The notes under the pieces were generated by a model. It was not told the origin of the DNA. It made no database searches and saw only the letters and a list, made by a program, of their open reading frames with translations. From positions 13,928 to 77,927 of the forward strand of contig CAWJRC010000002.1 of assembly GCA_963845205.1 (NCBI GenBank): 64,000 nucleotides of DNA. Direction: 5' to 3'. The first letter of the stretch is position 1. Every line of letters begins with the position of its first letter. This DNA is from an uncultured archaeon (GTDB lineage: Archaea > Nanobdellota > Nanobdellia > Pacearchaeales > GW2011-AR1). The position numbers and the translations under genes were made by a program. Of this stretch, positions 16,500 to 50,498 are shown one piece after another.

Positions 16500-17498
16500 A
16501 TGGAATTAAATCTTCTTATTCCGATTTTTCTAGGTTTTTTAATTTCTTTCCTTTCTTTGCCAATATGGATAAAAAGAGCTAAGAATGTAGGTTTAGCAGG
16601 AAAAGATATGCATAAGAAAAGTCAAGAGCATATCGCAGAAGCAGGAGGAATCTGTGTAATTATGGGTTTTATTGTAGGAGTTTTAAGTTATATTGCAATA
16701 AAAACTTTTTATTTTAAGACAAATGATAATATCATTGAAATTTTTTCTATGATAAGTACAATTTTAATAATTTCTTTTATAGGCTTTACAGATGACATTC
16801 TTGGTTGGAAAATTGGGTTGACAAAATCTGTGAGGATTCTTCTTTTAATTTTTGCTTCATTGCCTGTGATTGTAATAAATGCAGGAGAATCTGAAATGAT
16901 AGGAATAAATCTGGGGGTAATATATCCCTTATTAATAATCCCCTTGGGGATTGTAGGTGCGTCTGCAACTTTTAATTTTTTAGCAGGATATAACGGACTT
17001 GAAACAAGCCAGGGAATTATAATATTAGCTGCTCTTTCAATTGTAACTTTCTTTACAGGAAATAGCTGGTTAAGCATGATTGGAGCTATTATGGTTGCAT
17101 GTTTATTTGCATTTTACATATTTAATAAATTCCCTGCAAAAGTTTTTCCTGGGAACATTCTTACTTATTCTATAGGGGCACTAATTGCAATAATAGCCAT
17201 TTTAGGAAATGTTGAAGAAATTGCTGTTTTTTTCTTTATACCCTATTTTCTTGAAACAATCCTTAAAGTAAGAGGCAGACTAAAAAAAGAAAGTTTCGCT
17301 AAAGTAAATGAGGATGGAAGTTTGGAAATGCCTTATGAAAAGATTTATGGACTTGAACACTTATCAATTTGGATTCTTAAGAGAATAAAGCCGAGCAAAA
17401 AAGTATATGAAAAAGATGTTGTATATCTTATTAATGCGTTCCAAATATTAATTGTAGTTATAGGTTTTATAATATTCAGCAAAGGAATATTTGTATGA
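16500..17498 (+). CDS. polyprenyl-phosphate HexNAc-1-phosphate transferase (MraY/WecA/GPT family, AglH-like)
   Basis: FTDDILGWKIG and NFLAGYNGLETSQG motifs; ~10 TM segments. ATG lies 2 nt after the aglB stop. Confidence 0.8.
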   Translation: MELNLLIPIFLGFLISFLSLPIWIKRAKNVGLAGKDMHKKSQEHIAEAGGICVIMGFIVGVLSYIAIKTFYFKTNDNIIEIFSMISTILIISFIGFTDDILGWKIGLTKSVRILLLIFASLPVIVINAGESEMIGINLGVIYPLLIIPLGIVGASATFNFLAGYNGLETSQGIIILAALSIVTFFTGNSWLSMIGAIMVACLFAFYIFNKFPAKVFPGNILTYSIGALIAIIAILGNVEEIAVFFFIPYFLETILKVRGRLKKESFAKVNEDGSLEMPYEKIYGLEHLSIWILKRIKPSKKVYEKDVVYLINAFQILIVVIGFIIFSKGIFV

Positions 17499-17905
17499 TA
17501 CAAAAAAAATTCAGGAAATTTATAATTTTTTGCTTTGTAGGAGGAATTGCAACATTGATAGACTTAGGGGTCTTCAATCTATCAGCAATCATTCTGGGAA
17601 AGGGAGTGGTCCTTCTTCAAATTTCAAGGTTGCTTGGTATAATTGTTTCAATGATGTGGAATTTTGTTATTAATCGGAATTTAACATTTGATGCAAAAAA
17701 TGAAAAGGTCAGAAAACAACTTCCAAAATGGATTACTCTTTATTCTGCAACATCATTAATAAATTTTCTTGTATTCAGCTGGGCTGTTTCTGTAATCGGT
17801 GCTAGTTTCTGGGAAAGAAATATAGCCTTTGTATGCGGATATGTTATAAGTGTCCCCCTAAATTTTGTTGGATCTATGTTCTGGGCTTTCCGAAAGAAAG
17901 ATTAA
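17495..17905 (+). CDS. GtrA-like membrane protein
   Basis: 136 aa, 4 TM. FCFVGGIATLIDLGVFN and WNFVINRNLTF motifs. ATGA overlap with the upstream gene. Confidence 0.75.
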   Translation: MIQKKFRKFIIFCFVGGIATLIDLGVFNLSAIILGKGVVLLQISRLLGIIVSMMWNFVINRNLTFDAKNEKVRKQLPKWITLYSATSLINFLVFSWAVSVIGASFWERNIAFVCGYVISVPLNFVGSMFWAFRKKD

Positions 17906-18602
17906 TAGTTTTAAGATAATATTTTATTATTTTAAAAATAGAGTTTATTCCTCCAAAGAAAGTCAATTTAGAGCCTTCTGAATCTGTCCATTGAATGGGG
18001 TATTCTATTATGGTTTTGGAATTTTTTTTGCATAAATATAAAAAATCAACATCAAAAGCCCAACCTTTTTCTGTGCAATTTTCCGCTAAAAATTTAGCGG
18101 TTTCTTTTTTAAAAAGTTTTGCACCACACTGAGTGTCTTTATATTTAAAACCAAAAAGAATCCTTGTAGTCATATTAAAAATAAAACTTGAAACATTCTG
18201 AGAAAATTTTCTGGAGGGGTATACAACTGCACCTTTTATCTTTCTTGATGCAATTATTCCATCAGCATTCTGTATATTTTTATACAATTTAAAAAAATTC
18301 TCCGAATCTGTACTGTTATCAGCGTCAGCGAATCCTATGAGTTGCCCTTCTGCAAGTTCAAAACCTTTTATAACTGCCCCCCCTTTCCCGACATAAAAGG
18401 AGATATTATGAATAATTATATTTTTTTTATCTTTTGCAAATTTTTCTGCAACATTTAAGGTATTATCACTACAGTTATTCGGAATTATAATTATCTCAAA
18501 ATCTTCTTTTAATTCTTTTTTAAAAAAAGAATAATATTCATTAAGCGTAAGCAATATCCTTTTTTCTTCATTATACGCAGGTATGATTATTGAAAGTTTC
18601 AT
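17874..18602 (-). CDS. GT2 polyprenyl-phosphate hexose synthase (ALG5/DPM1/GtrB-like)
   Basis: IIIPAYNEE, DADNS and DTQCGAKLF followed by WAFDVDFLY. Confidence 0.8.
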   Translation of the reverse strand: MKLSIIIPAYNEEKRILLTLNEYYSFFKKELKEDFEIIIIPNNCSDNTLNVAEKFAKDKKNIIIHNISFYVGKGGAVIKGFELAEGQLIGFADADNSTDSENFFKLYKNIQNADGIIASRKIKGAVVYPSRKFSQNVSSFIFNMTTRILFGFKYKDTQCGAKLFKKETAKFLAENCTEKGWAFDVDFLYLCKKNSKTIIEYPIQWTDSEGSKLTFFGGINSIFKIIKYYLKTINLSFGKPRT

Positions 18603-20137
18603 TTAAGGTTATATATAATTACGGCAGGTTGAGTTTGAGCTTGGTCAAAGAAATATGCCATTGCGATAGTAAGATTTTCTTCTTGAGGATAGCTAAATGT
18701 CCAATTAGAGCTTTGTTCATATGCGGAAATAACATAAAATTTTATATTTTTATCTGTTTTAAGCAAAGATTCAAAATCATTTTGACTTGCAGGGAAATTC
18801 AAGGTATCGCGATGAGAATAATAACCTATCTGATACGGGCTACTTGTTATTATTTCATCAGAAACGTTGGAATTTTGTCTTAAAAATAATCCTGCTTCCA
18901 TTACTTCTACATAAGAAGGTAATTTTTGTTTTATTAAGGTATCCGCAGATTCAATTTGTGAAAAGGCAACAAAACCAAGAAGTAAGATAATTAGAATTAC
19001 AGCAATTATTTTCATTTTTTTCTTTATATAATTGAAGCAGAACATAATAGAAAGACCAGAAATTATAAAAATGGAAGGAAAAGAGCAGAAAATATATCTA
19101 TCATCATTGGTCTGGACTGCAAAACTGTTTATTATAAGTGGGATGATTAATAAAAGAATTATAAAAAAATCTCCTCTTAATTTCATTTCTTTTTCTTTCA
19201 TTAGAATATCAAAACCCAAAATCATTCTAGTCAAAAGTAAAAGGCCGAGTATAAAGAAAATTAAAAGTATCCAGGTCAGATATATCGGAAATGAGGTTAT
19301 ATAATACCCTAATACATTTAACCCTCCAGAGATTATGCTTGCACTAGTCCCCTGAGGGGCATTCCAGGCCGCTGCTTGAAGTAGGATAAATCCATGAAAT
19401 TGTAAGTAACCCCATATTAGGTAAGGAGCTAGGATTATTAAGAAGATTAAAGCTGAGATCCAAATTTCTTTTTTTAACAAAAACTTTAACTTTTCTGTGA
19501 ACAATAGGTATATTAAAACTGCAAGAAGCAAAAGTGCAGTTGTTATTCTAAATAAAGTTCCAATTCCTAATACCAAAGAGGCCAGATAGAGATATTTGGG
19601 TTTGTTAGTTTTAAAATATTTGAAAAATAAAAATGCGGAAAAAGTAAAAAATGTCAGAGAGGGAAGATCTACCATAAGCCTGTAAGTATAAAAGAGATTA
19701 AGATAAAAAACCGACATGAAAAATGCGGCTAAAAGACCTATTTTCTTATCATAAACTTCTTTTCCTAGAAGATAAATTGCAGGAACAGAAACTATTGAGA
19801 TTAATAAGATCATTAATCTTGGCAAAATTTCAGATTGAGATATCTTAAAAAATATTGCGGTTATAAAGGACAATAAAACATCTCTTACCGGATTAATCTG
19901 AAAATTTATCCCAAAGGCCCATTTCCTAGCCATTTGCATATATTCTGCTTCATCCCACCAAAGAGGCTGATTGCTGGTCAAAACAAAATAATAGATTCTT
20001 ATGGCTATTGCCAAAAGAATAATAGCCAACAGACTAGAATTATAAGGATTTTTTAGCCAATTTATTATTTTTCCTTTTCTTTTATTAATCTTTTTTTCAG
20101 ATAGAGTTTCTTTTATTTCTCCTTTTATCTCTTCCAT
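18599..20137 (-). CDS. GT-C fold glycosyltransferase (ArnT/PMT family)
   Basis: 512 aa, >10 TM. A PLWWDEAEY motif sits in the first extracytoplasmic loop. 4-nt overlap with the downstream GT2. Confidence 0.7.
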   Translation of the reverse strand: MEEIKGEIKETLSEKKINKRKGKIINWLKNPYNSSLLAIILLAIAIRIYYFVLTSNQPLWWDEAEYMQMARKWAFGINFQINPVRDVLLSFITAIFFKISQSEILPRLMILLISIVSVPAIYLLGKEVYDKKIGLLAAFFMSVFYLNLFYTYRLMVDLPSLTFFTFSAFLFFKYFKTNKPKYLYLASLVLGIGTLFRITTALLLLAVLIYLLFTEKLKFLLKKEIWISALIFLIILAPYLIWGYLQFHGFILLQAAAWNAPQGTSASIISGGLNVLGYYITSFPIYLTWILLIFFILGLLLLTRMILGFDILMKEKEMKLRGDFFIILLLIIPLIINSFAVQTNDDRYIFCSFPSIFIISGLSIMFCFNYIKKKMKIIAVILIILLLGFVAFSQIESADTLIKQKLPSYVEVMEAGLFLRQNSNVSDEIITSSPYQIGYYSHRDTLNFPASQNDFESLLKTDKNIKFYVISAYEQSSNWTFSYPQEENLTIAMAYFFDQAQTQPAVIIYNLK

Positions 20138-20146: not shown

Positions 20147-21120
20147 TTAGATGATTATCCGGTTTTTATTTGTTTTGGGGTAAAACCCATTGGTATTTTG
20201 TAGAACAGAAACATATTGTCCTATCCCTTCTTCTAATGAGATAAAATCCCCTTTGAAACCCACTTTCCTTAACTTAGTCAAATCGGCCTTTGTAAATTTT
20301 TGATATTTCCCCTTTAAATCTTCAGGGAAATGAACAAATTCTATTTTGGTCTCTTCACCATATAATCCAGACATAATATTAGCTATTTTAGAAAAACTTT
20401 CTGCTTTACCTGTTCCGCAATTAAAGATTCCATTTATTATTGAATTTTCAAAGAAGAATAAATTAACCTTCACAGCGTCATCAACATGAATGAAATCTCT
20501 AGAAAAATCTTCGCTACCTTCAAATAATTCTATTTTTTTTTCAGATAAATTCTGATTATGAAAATGATAAATTGCTGAAGCCATTTTACCTTTGTGATTT
20601 TCTTGAGGACCATAAACATTAAAATAGCGTATTCCTACAATTTGACTTCCAAGATTTTTTATTTTTCTAACATAATTATCAAACAAAATTTTTGAAAGAG
20701 CATAATTATTCAGTGGATGTTCACAATATCTTTTTTCTTCAAAACCATCCTGCCCATAACCATAAACAGAAGCAGACGATGCATAAATTAAACGAATTTT
20801 ATTCTCTAAGCAGAAATTGAGAATTTTTTTGCTGTAAAGGTAATTATTCTCCATTAAGTAATTTTTGTTATTTTCCATAGTATTTGAGCAGGCACCAAGA
20901 TGGAATATAGTTTCTATATTTTTTTCTTTGAAAGAATTTAATTTGCCTAAGAAATTTTTTTGTCCCAATAATCTAAAAAGTTTAATGATCTCAAATTTTT
21001 TTGTTTTGAAGGATTTCCTTTTATATTGTCAACAATAATTAGGTCTTCTATTCCTTTTTTATTTAAACCTCTAACAAGGTTGCTTCCAATAAACCCTGCT
21101 CCGCCAGTGACTACTATCAT
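20147..21120 (-). pseudogene. hldD: ADP-L-glycero-D-manno-heptose 6-epimerase (HldD/RfaD-like), interrupted by a -1 frameshift in a 7-nt homopolymer
   Basis: The N-terminal 57 codons ([20 protein letters not shown]) stop at 20947. The rest (NFLGK..FHLGACS..YASSASVYG..YALSK..RYFNVYGPQENHKGKMAS) continues in the -1 frame from the T7 run at 20955-20961. The start overlaps the upstream kinase stop (ATGA). Confidence 0.8.
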
Positions 21121-22043
21121 TTTTTATCTTTTATCAATTCCTCTTTTAGTTCATCTAATCTTACCTGATATGTTCCTTTTTTGCCTACAGAGATTCCTGC
21201 TGCATAATTTGCTAGTATTACTGATTCTTCAAGGGGATATCCAGAGGATAAAGCTAAAGATAGAGTCGCAATTGCGGTATCTCCTGCCCCCGTAACATCA
21301 TAAACTTCTTTCGCAACTGTTGGAATCTCTATTTGTTTATCTGAAAATAAAGCCATACCTTTTTCACCCCTAGTTATTAAAATATTACATTTTAACCTAT
21401 TCTGTAGATCTTTTCCTGCAGAATAAATTTCTTTTTTGGGGCTCATTTCCAACGCCTCTTTTTCATTGGGAGTAATTAAAAAAGAATTTGTATAAAGGGC
21501 AATATTTTGGGGTTTTGGATCAATAATTATTTTCTTATTAAAAGGTTTTAAAAAATTAATTAAACTCTCCGTAACACAACCTTTTGCATAATCAGAAATT
21601 ATTATTACATTTGAAGTTACAGATTCCTGTTTTAAAGATTCTAAGGTTTTAGAATTAAAATATTTAGATAAGGTGTCTTCCCAGTCTAATCTAACAATTT
21701 GCTGCTCTCCTCCAATTATTCTTTCTTTTACGGTTGTTTTATGATTAGTATCAAAAAAAGATTTTACGCCTTTTATTTCCGAAAGATTTAAAAGAATTTT
21801 TGCATTTTCATCACTTCCAATAAACCCAAATAAAGAAGCAGAACCTCCAAGAGAAGAGATATTTGCTGCTACATTCGCAGCGCCACCTAATTTGTAAGAT
21901 TCTTCTATTACATTCACTATTGGAACAGGAGCTTCAGGGGAAATTCTTGAGACATTTCCAAAGACATATTTGTCTAACATTATATCCCCAATAACAACAA
22001 TTTTTGCATTGAGAAATTCATCCAATAAATGGTCAAGATTCAT
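21117..22043 (-). CDS. PfkB-family sugar kinase, D-beta-D-heptose 7-phosphate kinase-like (HldE domain I)
   Basis: [45 protein letters not shown] closely mirrors the RfaE/HldE kinase domain. A C-terminal DVTGAGDT motif is present. Confidence 0.8.
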
Positions 22044-35423: not shown

Positions 35424-36683
35424 ATGATCGAAAGGAAAAAGCAAATTGTTTTCGTAGAACCTTTTCCAACAGTAATGATCTACAAGATAGCCAGACTACT
35501 AAAAAAGAAAGGATACGAAACAGTATTAATCAAGCTTATGAAATCCGGAGCTTCTGAAGATTTCCATCTTGGGGGATTTGATAAAGTAATCTCTTTTAAT
35601 ATAGAATATAATCAAGTGAACATAAAAAATATTCCAAAAATTTTAAAATCTTTTTTAAAAACTTCTAATGATAATCTAAAAGCCTTTTTGGAAGTAATAA
35701 AATTAAGGCCCTATGTTGTTTTCGCAAGATCATGCCCAAGCTGGCCATGCGCAATTACAAGAGTTTTTACAAGAAAAGCAGCTTTTATTTATTTTCCCTA
35801 TGATATACGATGCCAATATTATGATAGCATAAAAAAAGCTAGAAAAAGCGGGATTCCGAGCTTTGAAATCAAAGCTGAAAGATTTTGTTTTGAAAATGCA
35901 GAGGGAGTAATGCATAAGGGAAGTCCAGAAGAATTAAAATTGTTAAATGGGAGAATGTTGGGAGATAATGTAAAGCTTCCAAGATATCAATTAAACTTTT
36001 TGCCATACTGTTTAAAGGAGTTTATTTTGCCGATAAACAAAAACAAACTTTCAAAAAAAGATAAAGAAATACATATCGCATTTGTGAACTCTATAGGTAC
36101 AGCGGGCCCTATGAGCGGCTTACCTGTTTTTGAAAATATCAAACTATTTATATCAATGGGAATACATGTTCATGTTTATTCAAGGCCAAATTCAATTTCT
36201 CAAGAACAACTAAGGCAATTTTTTATAGAAGATTCTGAATTTACAAGAAGGTACAGCGATGTTTTGAAATCTAAATTTTTTCACCTCCATAATCCTGTTG
36301 AACCCGATAAATTAAGTGAGGAACTATCCCAATATGATTTCGGCATGTGGACTGCGGATGAAAATCTTGATGAGGGAGATATAAATTTAGATAACGCAAT
36401 TGGCAACAAATTAGCCAGTTATCTTGAAGCTGGAATAGGTTTAGTCTCTCACAGATATAACAAGTTCATTAATCAAGTAAGCAAAAAATATGGCATTTTG
36501 ATAGAATATGATTTGGGGGATAAAAAAATTAAAGAACTCAAGAAATCTTTTTCTAAATTAAACTTAAAAAAATTGGAAAAGAATGTGATTAAAGCAAGAG
36601 AAGATTTTCTGATGGATAAGCATATAGGGGAATTAGAACAGTTTATGATTAAAGTTGCTGAATCAAAAAGAATTTCTAGATAG
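35424..36683 (+). CDS. hypothetical protein, possibly a divergent GT-B-fold glycosyltransferase
   Basis: 419 aa with two Rossmann-like halves (IVFVEPFP..; IHIAFVNSIG..GNKLASYLEAGIGLVS). No canonical motifs I can name. Confidence 0.35.
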   Translation: MIERKKQIVFVEPFPTVMIYKIARLLKKKGYETVLIKLMKSGASEDFHLGGFDKVISFNIEYNQVNIKNIPKILKSFLKTSNDNLKAFLEVIKLRPYVVFARSCPSWPCAITRVFTRKAAFIYFPYDIRCQYYDSIKKARKSGIPSFEIKAERFCFENAEGVMHKGSPEELKLLNGRMLGDNVKLPRYQLNFLPYCLKEFILPINKNKLSKKDKEIHIAFVNSIGTAGPMSGLPVFENIKLFISMGIHVHVYSRPNSISQEQLRQFFIEDSEFTRRYSDVLKSKFFHLHNPVEPDKLSEELSQYDFGMWTADENLDEGDINLDNAIGNKLASYLEAGIGLVSHRYNKFINQVSKKYGILIEYDLGDKKIKELKKSFSKLNLKKLEKNVIKAREDFLMDKHIGELEQFMIKVAESKRISR

Positions 36684-36733
36684 ATTAAATCAGGGATATA
36701 AAAATTTAAATAAGGGGATAATAAAAAGTTACT

Positions 36734-38353: not shown

Positions 38354-38407
38354 TTTTTATAGAAATTAACAATAATCTTTATAAATTGTTATTTATTCCG
38401 AAAAAGA

Positions 38408-39835
38408 ATGGAAAAAAAGGATAAAGTAATGTTAATGTATCCTAATTTTGACTGGACAGATTCAATGGCTAGAACAAAATGGCATATTCATCCATATAAT
38501 CTTGGACTTTTGGCGTCAATGATCAGAGACGAATATGATGTAAGCATAATTGATGCTGGAATGGAAAATTTTTCTAAAGATGAATTTGCAAAAATGATTA
38601 GAGAAACTAAACCCAATGTTTTAGGAATTTCAATATGCACTAATGAATACATTAACTCCGGGTTAATAGCGGCAGAAGTAGCAAAAGAAAATAATCCAGA
38701 AACGAAAATCTTTGCGGGGGGAGTAGGTGTTACAACAAATCCTAACTCATTGATGAAAAGTAATTATATTGACGGTGTAATTATAGGAGAAGGGGAACAT
38801 GTTTTTAAGGGACTTTGCGACTTTTTAAGAAAAGATGGCTCTTTTCCAGATAAGGGCGCATTATATAAAAAAGATAATAGAATAATTGGTTCTGAAAAAT
38901 TTGATTTTTTACAAGATCTAGATTCGCTTCCATTACCTGCTTATGATCTTGTTGATTTTATGGGATATGCAACAACAATTCAAAGAGAAAGTGTAGACAG
39001 GCCAAGAAAAATGCCTTATGCACGGACTATTACTTCAAGGGGATGTCCGTATAACTGCTGTTTCTGTGAAGTCGCTTCTATATCGGGGAGAAAAGTAAGA
39101 TTTAGGAGTTTGGAAAAGGTTACTGAAGAAATTGAATGGTTAATAAAAAATTACGGGATAAAAGCTCTTTCATTTGATGATGATAATTTAACAGTCAATA
39201 AAGACAGAGCAAAGAAATTGTTTAAAACAATGATTGAAAGAAAATATGATCTTAAATGGAATAATCCTTCAACTGCAATATTTACTCTTGATGACGAAAT
39301 GCTGGATTTAATGAAAGAAAGCGGATGTAGTTTTTTGGGGACTGCAATTGAAAGTGGAGTTCAGAGAGTATTAACAGATATTATTCATAAGCCATTAAAT
39401 TTAGAAGATGTTAAAGGAACAATGAAAAAGATAAAAGAAAGAGGAATAGACGTCTCTTCTAATTTTATTGTGGGATTCCCTGGAGAAACATGGGAAGAGA
39501 TAAGACAGACTTTTAGATATGCAGAAGAATTAGATCCAGATTATTGCAAATTTTTTATTGCTACTCCTCTTCCAAATACAGAGCTTTCCAGAATTGCAAA
39601 AGAAAAAAATATTTTTAAAAATGATTTCGATTTTAATAAACATCTTTGGACTGATGGACAGATAGATACTTCTGAATTTAGGCATCAGGATTTGAAGATT
39701 TTAAGAGCTTACGAATGGGACAGAATAAATTTCTCAAGCGAAAACAAAAGAAAAAAAATAGCGCAAATGATGGACATAAGTGAAGATAGATTAAATGAAA
39801 TTAGAAAAGAAACATTAAAAATTGCCAATCCATAA
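38408..39835 (+). CDS. class B (B12-binding domain) radical SAM enzyme
   Basis: VLGISICT..FAGGVGVT..IIGEGE, then TSRGCPYNCCFC. Confidence 0.85.
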   Translation: MEKKDKVMLMYPNFDWTDSMARTKWHIHPYNLGLLASMIRDEYDVSIIDAGMENFSKDEFAKMIRETKPNVLGISICTNEYINSGLIAAEVAKENNPETKIFAGGVGVTTNPNSLMKSNYIDGVIIGEGEHVFKGLCDFLRKDGSFPDKGALYKKDNRIIGSEKFDFLQDLDSLPLPAYDLVDFMGYATTIQRESVDRPRKMPYARTITSRGCPYNCCFCEVASISGRKVRFRSLEKVTEEIEWLIKNYGIKALSFDDDNLTVNKDRAKKLFKTMIERKYDLKWNNPSTAIFTLDDEMLDLMKESGCSFLGTAIESGVQRVLTDIIHKPLNLEDVKGTMKKIKERGIDVSSNFIVGFPGETWEEIRQTFRYAEELDPDYCKFFIATPLPNTELSRIAKEKNIFKNDFDFNKHLWTDGQIDTSEFRHQDLKILRAYEWDRINFSSENKRKKIAQMMDISEDRLNEIRKETLKIANP

Positions 39836-39837
39836 AA

Positions 39838-40797
39838 ATGAAAAACGAAAAGGTATTAATAATAAAAACGGGATACTCTGAAATTCTTGATGACAGGAAT
39901 AATTCAAGATGGGTTAGTTTGGGGGATGTATTAAGAACAACTCCCCTACTTAATCTTTACAAAGATAAATTAGTAACTTGGGTAAGTGATATTGAAGCTT
40001 TTCCTTTACTTGAAGGAAATCCATACATACACCGACTTCTACCTTATGATTTCACAACTGCGTTGCAATTAGAATCTGAAGAATTTGATACGGTCATAAA
40101 TCTGGAAAAAGTTCCAGGAATCTGCGCCCTTTCTGATAAAATAAAAGCAAGAAGGAGCAGATATGGATTTAGATTTAATAGTCAAACAGGGGAAGCAGAG
40201 GCATATGATAAAGCAATTGATATCTTAACAGTCAGCTCTGATCCAAAGGAGAAAAAAGAGAACAAAAGGACGATACAAGAGCTGCTTTTTGAGATGGTCG
40301 GAGAAAAATGGAACGGGGAAGAGTATATATTAGGATATAAACCAAAAAAAGGAACGAGATATGATATTGGACTTAATACTAAAACTGGCCAGAAATGGCC
40401 CACAAAAGCATGGTCTAATGAAAAGTGGAATTCTTTGGAAGAACGATTAAAAAAAGAAGGATTCAATGTTTCCAGACAAGATAAACAAAAAAAAGGAATT
40501 TTAACAGATATAAAAAAATATATTGACTGGCTTAATTCCTGTGATGTTATAGTCAGCAATGACAGTTTAGGATTACACTTGGGAATAGCGTTGAAAAAAA
40601 AAGTCATAGGCTTGTTCGGACCAACTCCTTACAAAGAAATTTTTTTTTATGGATTAGGAAAAGCTGTTTATCCCGAACCATCTCCAGAATGCATGCCCTG
40701 TTTTAAAGGAGAATGTGAAAGAGGAAAGAATTGCATGGAAGATATTCAAATAGAAAAAGTTTATGAAGAAATTATAAAACAAAAAAGCATTAAATAA
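39838..40797 (+). CDS. GT9 family glycosyltransferase (heptosyltransferase-like)
   Basis: KVLIIKTG..LGDVLRTTPLL N-domain and a CDVIVSNDSLGLHLGIALKKKVIGLFGPT C-domain, as in RfaC/RfaF-type enzymes. Confidence 0.75.
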   Translation: MKNEKVLIIKTGYSEILDDRNNSRWVSLGDVLRTTPLLNLYKDKLVTWVSDIEAFPLLEGNPYIHRLLPYDFTTALQLESEEFDTVINLEKVPGICALSDKIKARRSRYGFRFNSQTGEAEAYDKAIDILTVSSDPKEKKENKRTIQELLFEMVGEKWNGEEYILGYKPKKGTRYDIGLNTKTGQKWPTKAWSNEKWNSLEERLKKEGFNVSRQDKQKKGILTDIKKYIDWLNSCDVIVSNDSLGLHLGIALKKKVIGLFGPTPYKEIFFYGLGKAVYPEPSPECMPCFKGECERGKNCMEDIQIEKVYEEIIKQKSIK

Positions 40798-40838
40798 AAA
40801 GTTAGTAGAAGAGAGATAGGATTTTTAAGTATCTTTGT

Positions 40839-40858
40839 TACATAAATCTTTTTAAATA
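40839..40858 (+). promoter_or_regulatory. TACATAAAT element plus TATA box ~24 nt upstream of the ATG at 40878
   Basis: See 27990-28009. Confidence 0.45.
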
Positions 40859-40877
40859 GGTCCTTTTATGTTTGAAT

Positions 40878-41933
40878 ATGAACGGAACAGAGATAGATAA
40901 TCACAAATTGATGTATCATCCAAAAAGAGTTGAAGAATGGCTGGAAAAAAAAGATTGTTATCCAGTTTATGTTGAAATTGGCCCTACAAACAGATGCAAC
41001 CACCAATGTATTTTCTGTGCATTAGACTGGATTAAACATGGAACCCATGATATTGAAAAAAATGTGATGCTTTCCTCATTAAAGGATATGTCAGAACACG
41101 GAGTAAAATCAGTAATGTTTGCGGGAGACGGAGAACCATTGTTGCATAAGGATATAAATGAATTCGTAAGCAAATCTAAACAGTATGGATTAGATGTTTC
41201 TGTCACAACTAATGGTGTTCTTTTCACTGAAAAAAAAATAGAGGAATGTCTTCCTTGCCTTTCATGGATAAGGTTCAGTGTAGATGCAGGAAGTCCTGAA
41301 AAATATTCTTTAATACACAAAACAAATCCCGCAGACTTTAATCGGGTAATAACAAATATAGAAAACGCAGTCAATTTCAAGAAGTCAAACAAATTGGAAA
41401 CTACAATCGGAATTCAATTTTTAATGATACCCCAAAATGTTCCTGAACTAGAAAAACTTGTTCATATTTCAAAAGATATTGGCGCCGATAATTTGCAGAT
41501 AAAACCTTATTCACATCATCCCGGAAGTTCAAATGATTTAGTTATTGATACAAAAGAGTATAACAAATTTGAAAAGCAGCTAAAAGATTTAGGCTCAAAA
41601 GATTTTGAAATTTTATTCAGGAAAAAAACTATTGAAAGGATGGAAGAAGGAATAAATTATCCAAAATGTTACGGGCTTCCTTTTTTTGCGCTGATAGATG
41701 CAAGGGCGAATGTGATTCCATGCAATTTATTTTATAATAATGATGAATTTGTATATGGTAATTTATATGATCAAACTTTCAGTGAAATTTGGGAAGGAGA
41801 AAAAAGGAAAGGAGTTTTAAAAAAAATAGAAGAAAGGGGAATTTCAGAATGTAGAGAAGGCTGCAGACTTGATCCTATAAATAGATATCTCCACAGACTA
41901 GAAAATCCCCACCCCCATGACAATTTTATATAA
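40878..41933 (+). CDS. radical SAM enzyme (paralog of 43085..44200)
   Basis: GPTNRCNHQCIFC cluster and GDGEPLL. N-terminal HKLMYHPKRVEEW and C-terminal HDNFI are shared with the paralog. Confidence 0.8.
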   Translation: MNGTEIDNHKLMYHPKRVEEWLEKKDCYPVYVEIGPTNRCNHQCIFCALDWIKHGTHDIEKNVMLSSLKDMSEHGVKSVMFAGDGEPLLHKDINEFVSKSKQYGLDVSVTTNGVLFTEKKIEECLPCLSWIRFSVDAGSPEKYSLIHKTNPADFNRVITNIENAVNFKKSNKLETTIGIQFLMIPQNVPELEKLVHISKDIGADNLQIKPYSHHPGSSNDLVIDTKEYNKFEKQLKDLGSKDFEILFRKKTIERMEEGINYPKCYGLPFFALIDARANVIPCNLFYNNDEFVYGNLYDQTFSEIWEGEKRKGVLKKIEERGISECREGCRLDPINRYLHRLENPHPHDNFI

Positions 41934-41934
41934 A

Positions 41935-42564
41935 ATGGAAACAAAAAAATCAAAAGAAGAATTAATTGAATTTGAAAGCAGAATTGCAAAGTTATGGGAA
42001 GCTGCAAAAATACCTTATCCGGTTCATCTATGTGGGGGTAATGAAGAACAACTTATTGAAATTTTCAAAGACGTTAAGGAAGGAGATTATATCTTATCAA
42101 CACACCGTTCGCATTATCATTACCTTCTTGCAGGAGGAAATGAAGAAAATTTAGAGAAGATGATACTTGAAGGAAACAGTATGCATGTTTTTGATAAAAA
42201 ATTAAATTTTCTCACCTCTGCCATCGTTGCTGGAGTTCCCACAATAGCTGCAGGAATTGCCCTTGCATTAAAAAGAAAGGAAAGTGATAGGAAAGTGTGG
42301 TGTTTTGTTGGAGACGGCGCAGAGGATGAAGGACATTTTTATGAAGCAGTAAGATATGTCGACGGATTTGATTTGCCCTGCACATTTATTATAGAAGATA
42401 ATAATCGTTCTGTTGAGACCCCAAAAGCTGAGAGATATGGAAAATCTGAAATGATTTGGCCAAAATGCGTGAGAAGATATAATTATATTCCAAAATATCC
42501 CCATTCTGGGACAGGAAGTTTTGTAGATTTCAATGGAAAAAAGGCAGGAGGAAATAGTTTTTAA
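41935..42564 (+). CDS. TPP-dependent dehydrogenase E1 alpha-like subunit, short form (~209 aa)
   Basis: STHRSHYHYLLAGG plus a GDGAEDEG-x-IIEDNN thiamine-diphosphate motif. An alternative ATG at 41917 overlaps the upstream gene. Confidence 0.7.
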   Translation: METKKSKEELIEFESRIAKLWEAAKIPYPVHLCGGNEEQLIEIFKDVKEGDYILSTHRSHYHYLLAGGNEENLEKMILEGNSMHVFDKKLNFLTSAIVAGVPTIAAGIALALKRKESDRKVWCFVGDGAEDEGHFYEAVRYVDGFDLPCTFIIEDNNRSVETPKAERYGKSEMIWPKCVRRYNYIPKYPHSGTGSFVDFNGKKAGGNSF

Positions 42565-43088
42565 TGAAATACAAAGATGCTATTAAGCTGTCAATGGAAT
42601 ATCTTGCCAAAGATGAAAAAACTATTTTTATTGGATATAATGTAGGCTTCGGATCTCAAGGATACGGAACATTAAAAGGTATCCCAAAAGAGAAGAAAAT
42701 TGAAACTCCTTTAGCAGAAAATTTGATGATGGGGCTTGCTATGGGAATGGCTCTTGAAGGATATAGGCCAATAGTTTTTTTTGAGAGACATGATTTTATG
42801 TTAAATGCGTCTGACGGCATTGTTAATCATTTAAGTAAATTAGAAAAGATGTCAAAGGGGCAATTTAATCTTCCAGTTATTATAAGAGCAGTTATAGGCT
42901 CAAAAAGTCCTCTTTATCCCGGAGTTCAGCACATTCAAGATTTTACTGAAGCTTTTGAAAAGATGATAAATTTTCCAATTTACAGACCTGCAAATTCCGC
43001 AGAAATTGAAAAAATTTATAAAGAAGTAAAGGGGTTAAAAAAACCTGTAATGATAATAGAAGAAAAAGATTTATATGAACAAGAATGA
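42564..43088 (+). CDS. E1 beta-like (pyrimidine-binding domain only) subunit, short form (174 aa)
   Basis: KIETPLAENLMMGLAMGMALEGYRPIVFFERHDFMLNASDGIVNH matches the E1 beta / transketolase Pyr domain. No C-terminal domain. Overlapping start and stop codons on both sides. Confidence 0.7.
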   Translation: MKYKDAIKLSMEYLAKDEKTIFIGYNVGFGSQGYGTLKGIPKEKKIETPLAENLMMGLAMGMALEGYRPIVFFERHDFMLNASDGIVNHLSKLEKMSKGQFNLPVIIRAVIGSKSPLYPGVQHIQDFTEAFEKMINFPIYRPANSAEIEKIYKEVKGLKKPVMIIEEKDLYEQE

Positions 43089-44200
43089 CAAATGAATTAA
43101 TACTTGACGGACATAAACTTCTTTGGCATAAGGAAAGAGTTGAAGCTTGGCTTAGGGGGGAGAGAATCGCTCCTATAACCATAGACTGCGCTCTTACCAG
43201 AAGATGCAATTACAATTGTGTTTATTGTTATGGAAAATTACAGGCAAATGATGAAAAAAAGATGACAAAGGAGGTTATCTTCAGACTTCTTGATGACGCT
43301 GCAGAAATTGGAGTAAAGGGAATAAGCTTTGTAAGTGACGGAGAAAGTACGTGCTCTCCTTATTTGTACGAGGCAGTTGATCATGGAAAAAAGAACGGGC
43401 TTGATCTTGCTTTAGCAACAAATGGTTCATTGTTAAAAAAAGAAAATTTGGAAGGAATGTTAAAAGATCTTACATATATAAGATTTAATTTCTCAGCCGG
43501 AGAATCAAAAAGATACTCAGAAATTATGGGATGCAAAGAAGAGAATTTTTACAAGGTTATTGATACAATAAAAGAGAGCGTAAAAATAAAAAAAGAAAAA
43601 GGTTTGGATGTGACAATAGGTATGCAGATGGTACTGATGCCGCAATTTAAAGATCAGATTGTTCCTTTAGCAGAATTGGGTAAAAGATTAGGAGTGGATT
43701 ATCTAGTAATAAAACATTGCAGTGATGATGAAGAAGGCAAATTAGGAGTTAACTATGAAGGATATTTTCAGCCAGACTTAATTGAAAAAATAAAGATTGC
43801 AGAATCATTATCCGAACCAGACAAATATCTTGTAAAAGCCAAATGGTCAAAAATATTAAGCGGAGGAAAAAGAAAATATTCACAATGTTATGGCCCTCCT
43901 TTTATAATACAACTTTCAGGATCAGGATTAGTCGCACCTTGCGGAATGTTATTTAATGACCAATATAAAAAATTTCATATCGGAAATATAGCAGAAACTT
44001 CTTTTAAAGAGATATGGAAAAGTGATAAATATTGGGAAGTCATGGATTATATAGCTTCAGATAAATTTGACGCAAAGAAAGATTGCGGAACTTTATGCCT
44101 GCAGCATAAGGTCAATGAATTTTTATGGGACTTAAAAAACGGCGATGTTAGGTTGGAAAAATTAAATGGAGTTCCTCCACAACATATTAATTTTATTTAA
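43085..44200 (+). CDS. radical SAM enzyme (paralog of 40878..41933)
   Basis: ALTRRCNYNCVYC cluster, SDGEST, a C-terminal Cys-containing auxiliary-like region, and a QHINFI ending. Confidence 0.8.
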   Translation: MTNELILDGHKLLWHKERVEAWLRGERIAPITIDCALTRRCNYNCVYCYGKLQANDEKKMTKEVIFRLLDDAAEIGVKGISFVSDGESTCSPYLYEAVDHGKKNGLDLALATNGSLLKKENLEGMLKDLTYIRFNFSAGESKRYSEIMGCKEENFYKVIDTIKESVKIKKEKGLDVTIGMQMVLMPQFKDQIVPLAELGKRLGVDYLVIKHCSDDEEGKLGVNYEGYFQPDLIEKIKIAESLSEPDKYLVKAKWSKILSGGKRKYSQCYGPPFIIQLSGSGLVAPCGMLFNDQYKKFHIGNIAETSFKEIWKSDKYWEVMDYIASDKFDAKKDCGTLCLQHKVNEFLWDLKNGDVRLEKLNGVPPQHINFI

Positions 44201-44201
44201 A

Positions 44202-44624
44202 ATGAAAGTTAAAGAGGCATCAAAGATTATAATACTAAACGAAGAAAAAGAAATTCTGTTACAATTACGAGATGAAAAAAAAGATATCCCTTTCCCAGGA
44301 TATTGGGATTTTTTTGGTGGAAAAATCGAAAGAGGCGAAAACCCTCTTGAAACGATAAAGAGAGAAGCATATGAAGAAATTAATGTTGTACCCAGGAATA
44401 TAATCTTTTTAGGAAAAATTTATGTCCCAAAAAATAATCTTTCTCAAGAAAGCTGCAATAATTTCATGTTTAGAGGATATATCAATCAAACAGCTGAAAA
44501 TATAGATTTTTCCGAAGGACAGGGGGTTAGATACTTTGGGTTAAAGGAACTTAAAGGAATAAAATTTGTACATTTTTGGCTTGATTTTATAATAGAAAAT
44601 AAAGAGAAGATTTTTGGAGATTAA
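44202..44624 (+). CDS. Nudix hydrolase
   Basis: Nudix box GGKIERGENPLETIKREAYEEINV. ATG at 44202 immediately follows the upstream stop. Confidence 0.85.
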   Translation: MKVKEASKIIILNEEKEILLQLRDEKKDIPFPGYWDFFGGKIERGENPLETIKREAYEEINVVPRNIIFLGKIYVPKNNLSQESCNNFMFRGYINQTAENIDFSEGQGVRYFGLKELKGIKFVHFWLDFIIENKEKIFGD

Positions 44625-45521
44625 ATGAAACCTATTAAAATTAATCCAACATGCGAATATATTTCAGCATTTTTGACAATGAGATGCAACCTAAACTGCA
44701 GCTTTTGCCTTAATAGATTAAACAATTCAATCAATCGAAGCGGATTTAAGGAAATATCAGGAGAAGAATGGGTTAATGCACTTAACAGAATAGAATCAAG
44801 AAAAGATCTGCCGATAACATTCAGCGGAGGAGAACCTTTCCTTCATAATGACTTTATTTATATAATCAATAATTTAAAGCCAGAATTAAACATTGATATC
44901 TTGACTAATCTTTATCCTAATTCATTAGCACATAAAAACCGGCTTGAAAAATTTTTGAATGAAGTAAATCCTGAAAGAATTAAGAGAAAATCTCCTTATG
45001 CTTCAATTAGAGTTTCATATCATCCTGAACAGATGGAGGCAGAGGTTCTTATTGATAGTGTTAAAAAATTTAAGGAAAAGGGGTTTAGTATAGGGATATG
45101 GTCTGTTCTTTATCCAAGCCCAGAACAATTATCTGCAATAAATCAAATGCAGTTCAGATGCAGAGATGCAGGAATCGATTTTAGGCTTAAGGAATTTACC
45201 GGAGACTTTAACGGAACTCTTTATGGAGATTATTCAAAATACCCCAATTCTGTCCTGCAAAAAGAAACTAAAAAATGTTTATGCAAAACAGCGGAATTGT
45301 TAATAGGCCCAAATGCAGATGTTTACAAATGCCATAGAGATCTGTATGCTACAGAATTTCCCTTGGGGAATATTTCCAACCCAGAATTCCAAACAGAAAA
45401 TATTTTCAGAGAATGCTATAAATTTGGACAATGCCATCCATGCGACGTTAAAGTCAAAACAAATTACAAACAGCAACTTGGGCATACAAGTGTTGAAATA
45501 AAAGATATAGATAAAGATTAA
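44625..45521 (+). CDS. radical SAM enzyme (small, 298 aa)
   Basis: LTMRCNLNCSFC cluster and FSGGEPFLH. Confidence 0.8.
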   Translation: MKPIKINPTCEYISAFLTMRCNLNCSFCLNRLNNSINRSGFKEISGEEWVNALNRIESRKDLPITFSGGEPFLHNDFIYIINNLKPELNIDILTNLYPNSLAHKNRLEKFLNEVNPERIKRKSPYASIRVSYHPEQMEAEVLIDSVKKFKEKGFSIGIWSVLYPSPEQLSAINQMQFRCRDAGIDFRLKEFTGDFNGTLYGDYSKYPNSVLQKETKKCLCKTAELLIGPNADVYKCHRDLYATEFPLGNISNPEFQTENIFRECYKFGQCHPCDVKVKTNYKQQLGHTSVEIKDIDKD

Positions 45522-47074
45522 ATTTCCTTAATTTCTTCTATGGGTTTCTTTCTGGAAAAATTAAATATTTTTTTTAAAATGAACAAATCATTTTTATCTA
45601 AACCCTTTGATAAGAGAATTGTAAGGATATAAATCAAAAAGAAGAAGATTCCAAGAAAGATCATACTTAATGTATTTATTTCAACCAATGCTCTCAAAGC
45701 TAATAATAATAAAAGGGGTATAATTGAAACCAAAAGAATTGTTATCATCTTTTTTCTTAAAGGAACAAAATGCAGATAATGCTTTATTTCAAATAATAGG
45801 AAAACACATAAAATAACCCAGACTATTGTAGTTGCCCATGCAGCGCCGTCAATTCCGTATTTCTTGATAAGTATCACATTTAATATTATGTTTAACATCA
45901 AAGTTAGAATCGTATTTATCAAAACTATTTTTGATTTTCCTACAATATAAATTAAATCACTAAATAAAAGAGTGAATGACGAAAAAAATCCTCCGACTGC
46001 CAGGATCTTTAATGCAGACTGAGCAGACAGATATTCTTGGCCGAAGAAAAAGTTAATAATTGCTCCAGGAAATAAGAAGATTATTACAAAGATAGGTACT
46101 ATTAAGATGAATACCCACTTCCCTACTTGTTTAGTAATTTCAGTAAGTGCAAGATTTTTTTTCTGAGAAAAATATCTTGTTATTAACGGGAAAAAAAGTT
46201 GTTCAAACATTGAAGGTATAATTGCTATAATGCCAACAATAGGAGTTGCTACATTGTAGAATCCAACAGCAGTAGGATTCATGAAAAAACCTATTAAAAG
46301 AGAATCTGTCCAATAGTAAATATTATTTATCAGACTAAGAAAGATGATGGGCAAGGAATAAATAAAAATTTCTTTTAATATTTTAGATTTTTGTTTTTTA
46401 TTTAATGAATGACTTCCGAAAAGGAATGGAAGGCTGTATTTGCATACTATATAAGAGATTACAAGCATTGACAAAAGGCCGAAAGTGTATGAGAAGGTTA
46501 TTGAATTTTCTCCGATTCCTATAAAGATCAAAACTCCTAACATCAATAATTTTGTAAGACTCTGAACTACATTTGATATAAAAGAATACCAACCTATCTT
46601 TTCATAAGACCTTATAACAATTAAGAAAGCACTTGAAAGGAGAGTTAATGGAATACATATGCTCAAAATTTGAAGGAAAATTGTCATTTTTCCTGTATGA
46701 AAAAGATTAATTGAAATAAATGGGGCTAAAAGGAAAAGAGCAACTGCTGAAACAATACCGGAAATAGAAAGAATTATTACAGTTCTTTTTATGAGATATC
46801 TTATTTTATTGATCTGTTTTTTTCCTCGATAAAAAGGAATGAATCTTAATAGTCCGTCAATTAATCCAAAAGATGAAATTGAGACAAAAATTCCCAAAAC
46901 AATCAAAGATAAAGAAAAAATCCCGTATATTTCTGGCCCAAATTGTCTTGCTATTACTACCCTGTAAATATAATTAAACAAGTTAGATAAGATTATCACA
47001 ACAAAAACAAAAATAGAAGATTTTGCAATTGTTTCCAGCCCTGTGTTAGTTTCGTTATCTGAAGTAGATTTCAT
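45518..47074 (-). CDS. Wzx-like oligosaccharide flippase (MOP superfamily)
   Basis: 518 aa, ~14 TM, the typical polysaccharide-biosynthesis-protein layout. Sits at the island border. Confidence 0.7.
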   Translation of the reverse strand: MKSTSDNETNTGLETIAKSSIFVFVVIILSNLFNYIYRVVIARQFGPEIYGIFSLSLIVLGIFVSISSFGLIDGLLRFIPFYRGKKQINKIRYLIKRTVIILSISGIVSAVALFLLAPFISINLFHTGKMTIFLQILSICIPLTLLSSAFLIVIRSYEKIGWYSFISNVVQSLTKLLMLGVLIFIGIGENSITFSYTFGLLSMLVISYIVCKYSLPFLFGSHSLNKKQKSKILKEIFIYSLPIIFLSLINNIYYWTDSLLIGFFMNPTAVGFYNVATPIVGIIAIIPSMFEQLFFPLITRYFSQKKNLALTEITKQVGKWVFILIVPIFVIIFLFPGAIINFFFGQEYLSAQSALKILAVGGFFSSFTLLFSDLIYIVGKSKIVLINTILTLMLNIILNVILIKKYGIDGAAWATTIVWVILCVFLLFEIKHYLHFVPLRKKMITILLVSIIPLLLLLALRALVEINTLSMIFLGIFFFLIYILTILLSKGLDKNDLFILKKIFNFSRKKPIEEIKEI

Positions 47075-50025: not shown

Positions 50026-50034
50026 TGTTAAAAA

Positions 50035-50235: not shown

Positions 50236-50237
50236 AA

Positions 50238-50384: not shown

Positions 50385-50498
<114 letters not shown>

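Follow-up and report, generated by a model that had tools for sequence, protein, structure and literature searches.

A candidate mobile sugar-tailoring cassette joining a minimal thiamine diphosphate enzyme to radical SAM enzymes in an uncultured archaeon

What does an E1-type thiamine diphosphate (ThDP) enzyme, reduced to two small domains, do in an operon of radical S-adenosylmethionine (SAM) enzymes? The question is raised by six genes at 40878-45521 on the + strand of a 64,000-nucleotide stretch of contig CAWJRC010000002.1, from an uncultured archaeon of the Pacearchaeales (the window, whose numbering is used throughout). They encode, in order, rSAM1 (40878..41933; 351 amino acids (aa), a radical SAM enzyme whose C-terminal domain is of the twitch/SPASM type), mini E1-alpha (41935..42564; 209 aa, the ThDP diphosphate-binding (PP) domain alone), mini E1-beta (42564..43088; 174 aa, the pyrimidine-binding (Pyr) domain alone, without the E2-binding C-terminal domain), rSAM2 (43085..44200; 371 aa, radical SAM/SPASM, a paralogue of rSAM1), a Nudix hydrolase (44202..44624; 140 aa, Pfam NUDIX) and rSAM3 (44625..45521; 298 aa, a small radical SAM enzyme, rich in Cys in its C-terminal domain). 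All six proteins stay below every curated NCBIfam cut-off, so no name can be transferred to them. An earlier note on the window had read these genes as a module making a branched or chain-extended nucleotide sugar. We find that the genes of the E1 pair are firmly linked to those of two radical SAM paralogues resembling DesII, BtrN and BlsE, and that the six genes very probably form a functional glycan-tailoring cassette. In our judgement the chances are even that the operon is the core of a mobile sugar-tailoring cassette in which a radical SAM enzyme would create a carbonyl on a sugar derived from heptose, the ThDP enzyme would add two carbons (C2) and glycosyltransferases would install the product.

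As judged by motif and alignment, the mini pair retains what a ThDP active site requires. E1-alpha matches the Pfam family E1_dh at profile positions 6-172 of 300 only, and its VGDGAEDEG...IIEDNN segment aligns with GDGAANQG...CENN of human E1-alpha, the Mg/ThDP motif GDG(X)~26NN. Among 60 cluster representatives the conserved residues are H31, E36, R58, H60, GD125-126, E154/N156 and a C-terminal PHxGxG, with the GD and the E-x-N at least 90% conserved. E1-beta matches Transket_pyr (12-172) without Transketolase_C. Its Glu52 aligns with Glu59 of human E1-beta (3exe_B), the catalytic Glu responsible for ThDP activation, and is conserved at 90% or above among 27 family members; its QH, which aligns with the human beta QHSQ, is likewise kept in the family. 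Alignments of E1-beta to E1-beta chains in the PDB stop at about residue 178-225 of chains of 324-369 residues. The parts that are absent, about 130 C-terminal residues of alpha (its C-terminal third) and Transketolase_C of beta, are those that couple to E2, and no E2 or E3 domain was found among the Pfam-annotated neighbours of the displayed contigs or in the 13-47 kb island around the operon. Because these coupling parts are absent, the mini pair looks like a free-standing decarboxylase/carboligase and not like a dehydrogenase. Furthermore, natural alpha-beta fusions of ~400 aa occur among the E1-alpha homologues, which argues that mini alpha and mini beta form one unit.

The pair belongs to a large family of similarly short proteins. 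E1-alpha has 1,926 homologues in a set of 5.8 billion proteins; the 120 best matches have lengths of 203-247 aa and identities of 68-80%. When 50%-identity representatives were scanned with E1-alpha, 89 clusters fell below 1e-30, mostly of ~195-255 aa; members of the mini family scored 120-310 bits, and canonical E1-alpha proteins of 300-315 aa surfaced only below ~100 bits. Between the window pair and its archaeal and bacterial orthologues pN is 0.15-0.28, pS is saturated (0.54-0.98) and there are no internal stops; E1-alpha itself is 71-77% identical to bacterial homologues, with a pN of 0.15-0.19. On these comparisons the mini pair is a functional-looking enzyme under strong purifying selection and no relic. 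By the same kind of evidence it is no pyruvate dehydrogenase (PDH) E1, since length, Transketolase_C and score cut-offs all fail. With the alpha2beta2 E1 of PDH and of branched-chain 2-oxo acid dehydrogenase it shares the PP and Pyr folds, the GDG...NN motif, the beta catalytic Glu and the beta QH, whereas its alpha is shortened, its beta lacks the E2-binding domain, and its equivalog scores are 90.9 against a cut-off of 393.85 bits (E1-alpha, TIGR03182, the PDH equivalog) and 78 against 321 bits (E1-beta, NF006667). JGI labels for the mini proteins include 'pyruvate dehydrogenase E1 component alpha subunit' and 'TPP-dependent pyruvate/acetoin dehydrogenase alpha subunit'; through such 'pyruvate dehydrogenase E1' labels, DPANN archaea and candidate phyla radiation (CPR) bacteria could be falsely credited with a PDH when their metabolism is reconstructed. 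Some mini E1-alpha homologues (P0185, P0209) carry inteins (Intein_splicing/Hint plus LAGLIDADG) near the ThDP-binding region.

The neighbourhood of the pair was compared across related loci (L-numbers; P-numbers are homologous proteins). Loci anchored on E1-alpha were taken from one genome per species; L032-L037 were left out, their large E1 genes of the homodimeric type (~900 aa) matching in the ThDP motif only. A second set, fetched with rSAM2 alone, comprised 80 metagenome loci, of which 39 with at least 2.5 kb upstream were counted for the ThDP pair, family 2 glycosyltransferases (GT2) and rSAM1, and 43 for Nudix and small proteins; 25 have at least 6 kb upstream and 16 have long flanks. 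The block rSAM1-E1-alpha-E1-beta-rSAM2, often together with rSAM3 and a family 9 glycosyltransferase (GT9), occurs in Phycisphaerae, three Desulfobacterales, Pacearchaeota, Nanoarchaeota, other archaea and another bacterium, and the cassette in its various forms recurs in DPANN archaea, CPR bacteria, Omnitrophota, Phycisphaerae and Desulfobacterales. E1-alpha and rSAM2 are its most constrained members (71-77% identity between the archaeon and bacteria), with GT9 and rSAM3 at 41-44%. By this distribution of sequences the cassette is horizontally mobile across domains and not an archaeal pathway. The earlier note had left the conservation of the block to a neighbourhood comparison, which now shows it recurring as a unit in many genomes of both domains. 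As for the archaeal setting that it assumed, the window itself is archaeal (uS3_euk_arch, uL6_arch and uS5_euk_arch above their cut-offs, S4e just below, 196.9 vs 214), while the pathway is shared with CPR, Omnitrophota, Desulfobacterales, Phycisphaerae and others. Such bacteria are the source of most of the few database homologues with an organism name.

The rSAM2-anchored loci show what is constant in the cassette and what is exchanged. A ThDP alpha and beta pair lies within 4.5 kb in 34/39, a GT2 of ~250 aa is present in 28/39 and an rSAM1-like gene in 27/39. The pair comes in three forms: a transketolase-like mini form of ~276 + 164 aa, which is the commonest (21/39), a full-length E1 of ~328 + 347 aa (11/39) and the mini E1 (2/39). 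The window E1-alpha scores 62 bits against the full-length cassette E1-alpha of L039 and 35 bits against a hidden Markov model (HMM) of the transketolase-like form; since they are only so distantly related, the three forms look like independent recruitments into one slot, for one job. The mini E1 pair is a conserved partner of the radical SAM genes, and only one of three exchangeable ThDP forms. The consensus order is HldD-like, HldE, GmhA, rSAM1-like, ThDP alpha, ThDP beta, GT2, rSAM2 and two small membrane proteins, sometimes followed by a B12-radical SAM gene or STT3. These two small conserved proteins, of ~173 and ~179 aa (unk173 and unk179), with hydrophobic N-terminal halves and no Pfam match, usually lie 3' of rSAM2 in bacterial versions (L014:10949-12012, L016:14009-15064, L039:4107-5175 and 15/43 rSAM2-anchored loci); HMM searches found neither of them, nor a zinc-dependent alcohol dehydrogenase (Zn-ADH), in the 64-kb window.

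All three radical SAM enzymes of the operon carry the CX3CX2C cluster motif (rSAM1 CNHQCIFC, rSAM2 CNYNCVYC, rSAM3 CNLNCSFC). rSAM1 and rSAM2, the two that flank the E1 pair, are full-length paralogues (30% identity, E 8e-54), as had been supposed. rSAM1 matches Pfam Radical_SAM (65.7 bits) and SPASM (31.2 bits), its nearest sequences in the PDB are BtrN, BlsE and DesII, and its orthologues, scoring 430-540 bits, adjoin the ThDP pair in many loci. rSAM2, likewise matched by Radical_SAM and SPASM, has 6,048 homologues; the best 120, from archaea and bacteria, share 70-76% identity with it. In the family alignment its invariant Cys residues are C41/C45/C48 and C268/C286/C334/C338, the latter four being enough for one auxiliary cluster, as in a twitch domain. 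Its AlphaFold 2 model (pLDDT 91) has DesII as best Foldseek match (E 3e-16, TM 0.65; BlsE TMt 0.71), followed by SPASM maturases, anSME, BlsE, MoaA and viperin. DesII, BtrN and BlsE share with rSAM1 and rSAM2 a radical SAM core with one auxiliary-cluster (twitch/SPASM) domain and are their nearest solved relatives in sequence and fold, which supports the earlier reading of a sugar-making module. The resemblance is at the level of the fold only: identity is 13-17%, and the NCBIfam equivalog cut-offs are missed (rSAM1, 52.6 vs 450 bits for rSAM_desII and 44.6 vs 400 bits for rSAM_BlsE; rSAM2, 30.6 vs 450 bits for rSAM_desII). Unlike these relatives, the cassette enzymes have an N-terminal HKLxWH...W motif and a C-terminal NFI of their own, and some are fused to ThDP or GT2 domains. 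DesII, BtrN and anSME abstract a hydrogen beside a hydroxyl or amine and leave a carbonyl, BtrN being a radical SAM alcohol dehydrogenase, and the reactions of DesII, BtrN and BlsE on sugar rings are carbonyl creation or decarboxylation.

rSAM1 (41919-41933) and rSAM2 (44186-44200) both terminate in N-F-I, with a His before the tripeptide. Across the rSAM2 family F370 never varies, and conservation is 90% or more at H367, N369 and I371; this extreme C-terminus may be a docking or active-site element. rSAM3 (Pfam Radical_SAM, 38.9 bits) has 1,733 homologues, none of them specifically named. Its invariant Cys residues are C21/C25/C28 and C220/C236/C264/C270/C273 in the family alignment, and its model (pLDDT 92) gives weak matches at TM ~0.5 to SuiB, DesII and anSME, which do not suggest a function.

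Gene fusions tie the members of the cassette together further. E1-beta and rSAM2 form a single open reading frame (ORF) in L008, L009 and five of the top 120 rSAM2 homologues (P0274, P0300, P0320, P0333, P0343), full-length E1-beta is joined to GT2 in L059, and GT2 is joined to rSAM2 in P0296. From these fusions we argue that ThDP catalysis, rSAM2 catalysis and the loading of a lipid carrier would follow one another directly or be physically coupled. Similarly, in L042 a single ORF combines GmhB with an rSAM1-like enzyme (L038 subtype), which argues that an rSAM1-type enzyme acts near the heptose bisphosphate phosphatase step. An APH-type kinase is fused to E1-alpha in P0122. The E1-beta-rSAM2, E1-beta-GT2 and GT2-rSAM2 fusions also point to a bolder reading, which we regard as speculative and rather improbable: the ThDP enzyme and rSAM2 might be one machine, in which a substrate radical is coupled with, or handed to, a ThDP-bound C2 intermediate, giving a hitherto undescribed nine-carbon or C2-branched heptose derivative on the surfaces of CPR, DPANN and many further uncultured lineages. 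If true, such coupled radical/ThDP C-C bond formation would be new enzymology in a natural system, and the fusions are natural constructs for probing it.

The acceptor of the proposed C2 unit is suggested by the genes around the cassette. The operon stands at the 3' end of a glycan island that forms one unit at 13682-47074 (~34 kb) and contains AglB/STT3, a GT4 phosphotransferase, GtrA, GT2, a PMT_2 GT-C transferase, a heptose-7-phosphate kinase, an NTP-transferase/GT1 fusion, SDR dehydratase/epimerases, methyltransferases, four B12-radical SAM enzymes, further SPASM radical SAM enzymes, GT9 and a Wzx flippase. The proposed context of glycan biosynthesis is thus upheld by the island and by more than 100 related loci, themselves glycan or sugar clusters. 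A GT9 gene (39838..40797, +; Glyco_transf_9 48.2 bits vs a cut-off of 22) immediately precedes the operon, and GT9 adjoins the cassette in L001, L002, L008, L010, L013, L015, L039, L120, L121 and others. The earlier note had called it a heptosyltransferase; membership of this heptosyltransferase family stands, whereas the equivalogs of heptosyltransferase I/II/III are not reached (best 38.6 vs 134.6 bits). The island kinase (21117..22043, -) is of the D-glycero-beta-D-manno-heptose-7-phosphate kinase type (HldE domain I, PfkB), with 331.9 bits (E 3e-99) to TIGR02198 rfaE_dom_I, 13 bits under the cut-off of 345, and has relatives in the kinases that adjoin the fused E1 of L017, L021 and L022.

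In other loci the heptose genes are contiguous with the cassette. On a Paceibacterota contig, HldD-like, HldE, GmhA and GmhB-like phosphatase genes run into rSAM, the ThDP pair, GT2, rSAM2 and AglB; in single-cell genomes of Prochlorococcus the neighbours of a fused mini E1 are Zn-ADH, GmhB, HldE, HldD-like and GmhA; and 18/25 rSAM2-anchored loci carry GmhA or HldE. Compared with the ADP-L-glycero-D-manno-heptose pathway (GmhA, HldE, GmhB, HldD, WaaC/F), the full set of which thus accompanies the cassette in CPR and Prochlorococcus loci, the window has GT9 and the HldE-type kinase; it differs in lacking GmhA, GmhB and the adenylyltransferase domain, in belonging to an archaeon without lipopolysaccharide, and in its additional ThDP and radical SAM steps. 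From GT9, the window kinase, and GmhA, HldE and GmhB beside the cassette elsewhere, a heptose appears more probable than the antibiotic-type deoxysugar suggested earlier, and we think it reasonably probable that the cassette substrate derives from heptose. Cassette-adjacent HldE-like proteins of CPR and DPANN (L038:4028-5560, L004:6896-8422) have the adenylyltransferase N-terminal and PfkB C-terminal, the reverse of E. coli HldE.

How might the ThDP and radical SAM enzymes act on such a sugar? A heptose from the ADP-heptose route would first be oxidised or dehydrated by a radical SAM enzyme, for which rSAM1 is the candidate, to give a carbonyl; in oxygen-tolerant or aerobe versions a Zn-ADH would act instead. 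The E2-independent mini E1 would then decarboxylate pyruvate and add the C2 'active aldehyde' to this carbonyl, and in transketolase-like variants the C2 may be a glycolaldehyde unit. With an aldehyde acceptor the chain would be extended, by the logic of 1-deoxy-D-xylulose-5-phosphate synthase (DXS) and transketolase, and with a ketone acceptor it would be branched, by that of Plm8/9, AviB and YerE; the proposal accommodates either outcome. rSAM2 would perform the next radical step, rSAM3 and the B12-radical SAM enzymes would tailor the product further, and the Nudix enzyme would trim or recycle a nucleotide-linked intermediate. Finally, the product would be installed on the cell surface by GT9, or else by GT2 with a flippase and a GT-C transferase acting after it. 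We put the chances that the ThDP enzyme carries out a C2 ligation at about even.

The first of these steps draws on an exchange of oxidants. Among the fused-E1 loci without an rSAM1 or rSAM2 orthologue, Zn-ADH lies directly beside E1 in 5/6, and none of the loci carrying rSAM1/rSAM2 has it. A parallel that may serve as a lead is the aminoglycoside oxidation done either by a Zn-ADH (NeoA) or by the radical SAM enzyme BtrN. We take the exchange as a sign that one radical SAM enzyme supplies the acceptor carbonyl for the ThDP enzyme.

For the second step, pyruvate-derived C2 transfer to a sugar carbonyl has been proposed for Plm8/Plm9 (paulomycose), AviB1/AviB2 (eurekanate) and, as a functional parallel, YerE (yersiniose) (PMC4802897). 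Like the window pair, Plm8/9 and AviB1/B2 are a PDH-E1-type ThDP alpha/beta pair inside a sugar-biosynthesis cluster (PMC4802897). Compared by description, not by sequence, the window pair is unlike them in being domain-minimal (209 + 174 aa), without Transketolase_C. It partners radical SAM enzymes whereas they use an NAD-dependent 4,6-dehydratase route, and it sits with heptose genes and GT9 in surface-glycan islands of uncultured archaea and bacteria whereas Plm8/9 and AviB belong to actinomycete antibiotic clusters. Full-text literature searches found no published description of the cassette, and only the Plm8/9, AviB and YerE precedent turned up.

Several observations weigh against this route. 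Its substrate, C2 donor and step order are all inferred from sequence, and because the commonest ThDP pair is transketolase-like, the donor may differ between variants; transketolases normally take ketose donors, not pyruvate. HMMs built from 24 GmhA and 8 adenylyltransferase domains found neither in the 64-kb window, from which GmhB is likewise absent, and the GT9 match is limited to profile positions 172-243, the C-terminal third. The adjacency of GmhA and the fusion of APH to E1-alpha would also allow the ThDP step to act on a sugar phosphate before nucleotide activation. Furthermore, the island has two dTDP-glucose-4,6-dehydratase-like SDRs, which make an NDP-6-deoxyhexose substrate possible, and L120 and L121 carry 6-deoxyhexose-type genes.

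These last two points favour an NDP-4-keto-6-deoxyhexose as acceptor, with the two-carbon branch at C4 as for AviB1/B2 and Plm8/9, the heptose genes serving a separate sugar of the same glycan. Consistent with this, the island has an NTP-transferase beside its two dehydratase-like genes, and L120 and L121 join the ThDP pair, rSAM1, Nudix and rSAM3 with C-methyltransferases of the TylC3 type, L120 having DegT as well; there is also the published precedent (PMC4802897). However, GT9, GmhA, HldE and GmhB are the most consistent neighbours of the cassette, L042 has the GmhB fusion with an rSAM1-like enzyme, and a 4,6-dehydratase already yields a 4-keto sugar, which would make a radical SAM or ADH oxidant needless. 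We therefore consider a deoxyhexose acceptor unlikely.

A different role for the ThDP pair would be precursor supply: as a minimal transketolase it would make sedoheptulose-7-phosphate, or another ketose phosphate, for GmhA and HldE, and the radical SAM enzymes would be unrelated later tailoring. The prevalence of the transketolase-like form (21/39), the usual order HldE, GmhA, rSAM, ThDP pair, and the reduced central metabolism of CPR and DPANN all suit this idea. It does not explain why the cassette is also found in Prochlorococcus and Desulfobacterales, whose pentose-phosphate pathway is complete and makes a separate supply needless, nor why E1-type pairs, which decarboxylate 2-oxo acids, occupy the same slot. 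The fusions of E1-beta to rSAM2 and GT2 tie the ThDP enzyme to late steps, and the exclusive pairing with either Zn-ADH or radical SAM would have no role in providing sedoheptulose-7-phosphate. We give precursor supply only a small probability.

The mini E1 might instead be a decarboxylase only, releasing CO2 from a 2-oxo acid of sugar origin, for instance an ulosonic acid or the oxidised tail of a heptose, and so shortening the chain as sulfopyruvate and phosphonopyruvate decarboxylases do. Decarboxylation of 2-oxo acids is what E1 enzymes do, the parts for lipoyl/E2 coupling are absent here, and small split ThDP decarboxylases such as ComDE exist. Yet transketolase-like pairs, which normally do not decarboxylate 2-oxo acids, fill the same slot, and no ulosonic-acid synthase of the NeuB/KdsA type is found among the annotated neighbours, so that this is quite improbable. 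It is very improbable that the radical SAM/SPASM enzymes mature a peptide or cofactor in the manner of ribosomally synthesised peptides, with the glycan setting incidental: SuiB, SkfB and anSME rank high in Foldseek and SPASM enzymes are frequently peptide maturases, whereas sugar and glycan genes dominate the annotated neighbours, which include no recognisable peptide-maturation partner (small precursor ORFs were not searched), the NDP-sugar enzyme DesII is the top structural match, and radical SAM enzymes are fused to GmhB, GT2 and E1-beta. Finally, a pseudogenised PDH remnant, for which speak the half-length proteins and the widely missed NCBIfam PDH cut-offs, is refuted by purifying selection (pN 0.15-0.28), intact frames without internal stops, the conserved length, ThDP motif and catalytic Glu, thousands of homologues of equal length (1,926 for E1-alpha) and the conserved operon partners, so that the distinction drawn in the earlier note between this pair and decayed PDH fragments holds.

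Cassette homologues number in the thousands (E1-alpha 1,926; rSAM2 6,048), and none is specifically named or characterised. Were the proposed heptose chemistry true, the cassette would provide a new route to higher-carbon or branched heptoses, and its mini pair would be a minimal two-domain ThDP carboligase, totalling 383 aa, that might be useful in biocatalysis. Ultra-small and mostly episymbiotic, CPR bacteria and DPANN archaea depend for their attachment to hosts on a surface chemistry about which, to our knowledge, almost nothing is known.

The Nudix protein (Pfam NUDIX 59.4 bits) reaches no substrate-specific equivalog. Its Nudix box (GX5EX7REUXEEXGU) reads GKIERGENPLETIKREAYEEINV, with every acidic residue in place and N instead of the final G. 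In the window and in L013, L120 and L121 the gene lies directly 5' of rSAM3 and 3' of a radical SAM/SPASM gene, and in L015 it lies between E1-beta and rSAM1 with rSAM3 next, so that it recurs with rSAM3 and GT9 in these four other loci; among the 43 rSAM2-anchored loci it was found in none. Given this recurrence with rSAM3 in a few loci and absence from all 43, the Nudix enzyme is, by gene context, an accessory of a GT9/rSAM1/rSAM3 sub-module. Its likely substrate, as the earlier note suggested, would be a nucleotide-linked intermediate. Of its earlier placing in the module, the intact Nudix box stands and core membership does not.

The compact layout of the operon, described earlier, was confirmed in every coordinate, strand and junction by reading the sequence: all six ORFs were verified, and the junctions range from -4 to +1 nucleotides (nt). 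The rSAM1 stop (TAA, 41931-41933) is separated by 1 nt from the ATG of E1-alpha at 41935, the E1-alpha stop and E1-beta start have base 42564 in common (TAATG), and E1-beta overlaps rSAM2 by ATGA at 43085-43088. The rSAM2 stop ends at 44200 with the Nudix ATG at 44202, the Nudix TAA ends at 44624 with the rSAM3 ATG at 44625, and the 3' end of rSAM3 overlaps the convergent flippase gene by 4 nt (45518-45521). An alternative E1-alpha start is ATG 41917; the gene recorded in databases is the 209-aa form. A promoter-like element had also been claimed at 40839-40858. The TATA-box-like decamer TTTTTAAATA (40849..40858, +), ~24 nt 5' of the rSAM1 ATG, sits in the longest intergenic gap among the + strand genes of 35424-45521, and could from its sequence be an internal promoter. 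The window holds 3 copies of it where shuffles predict 4.6, which is not above chance, so that its location suits an archaeal TATA box and proves none. A sigma-70 scan of the window gave 58 sites against 57 expected, which is background and in any case irrelevant to an archaeal host. The window has a G+C content of ~31%, and the organism-named close homologues of its E1-alpha, rSAM2 and rSAM3 are largely from metagenome-assembled genomes of Pacearchaeota and Nanoarchaeota.

Upstream of GT9, two genes for B12-binding radical SAM proteins (36734-38353 and 38408-39835, +; B12-binding and Radical_SAM) encode probable C-methyltransferase-type tailoring enzymes, with orthologues in L008, L013 and L026 (530-637 bits); B12-radical SAM genes are present in 7/16 rSAM2-anchored loci with long flanks. 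Before them lies a gene for a conserved 419-aa protein (35424..36683, +) without a Pfam or NCBIfam match. Homologues occur in L010, L013, L015, L026 and L040, and a homologue in L121 has PF26337 Gtf3_C; the protein is probably a glycosyltransferase. On the other side, convergent with rSAM3, is a Wzx/MurJ-type polysaccharide flippase (45518..47074, -; Polysacc_synt 78.8 bits), orthologues of which adjoin the cassette in L004, L008, L013 and L026.

Pfam also identifies a GtrA-like protein (17495-17905, +), a GT2 (17874-18602, -) and a PMT_2 GT-C transferase (18599-20137, -) at the other end of the island. The GT2 is of the cassette type (101.7 bits, E 4e-31, to an HMM of 52 cassette-adjacent GT2s), and the three genes together (17495..20137) would form a lipid-linked sugar route. 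This resembles the ArnC/ArnT, GtrB/GtrA/GtrC and Dpm1/PMT relays, as does the cassette elsewhere, with a ~250-aa GT2 adjoining and PMT_2- or STT3-type transferases near; unlike in those relays, the GT2 is sometimes fused to rSAM2 or E1-beta.

Besides AglB, the island holds eleven radical SAM genes and is unusually rich in them. Four are B12-binding (23424-24791 (-), 29124-30659, 36734-38353 and 38408-39835) and four are SPASM-type (26792-27916 (-), 32643-33710, rSAM1 and rSAM2); rSAM3 is a further one. In other loci an AglB/STT3-type oligosaccharyltransferase of ~835-860 aa lies directly 3' of rSAM2 (L038:11114-13621 from Paceibacterota, L097:7673-10219, L098 and L042), which hints at STT3-dependent glycosylation in CPR bacteria. 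On a Tara Oceans contig (L120:9888-14148) the cassette is followed by a PEP mutase-cytidylyltransferase fusion, phosphonopyruvate decarboxylase, Fe-ADH and an NTP-transferase, so the glycan of this locus may also carry phosphonate.

Within the island, an SDR epimerase ORF (20147-20968, -; 273 aa) matches the Epimerase profile from position 60 on and may be truncated, frameshifted or mis-started. Outside it, the ORF upstream of the SecD gene (49126-50105; probably SecF) has a longest reading from GTG 50091 that overlaps tRNA-Gly (50035-50105), and its true start is probably downstream. Three tRNAs and a 5S rRNA are clustered at 50035-50499.

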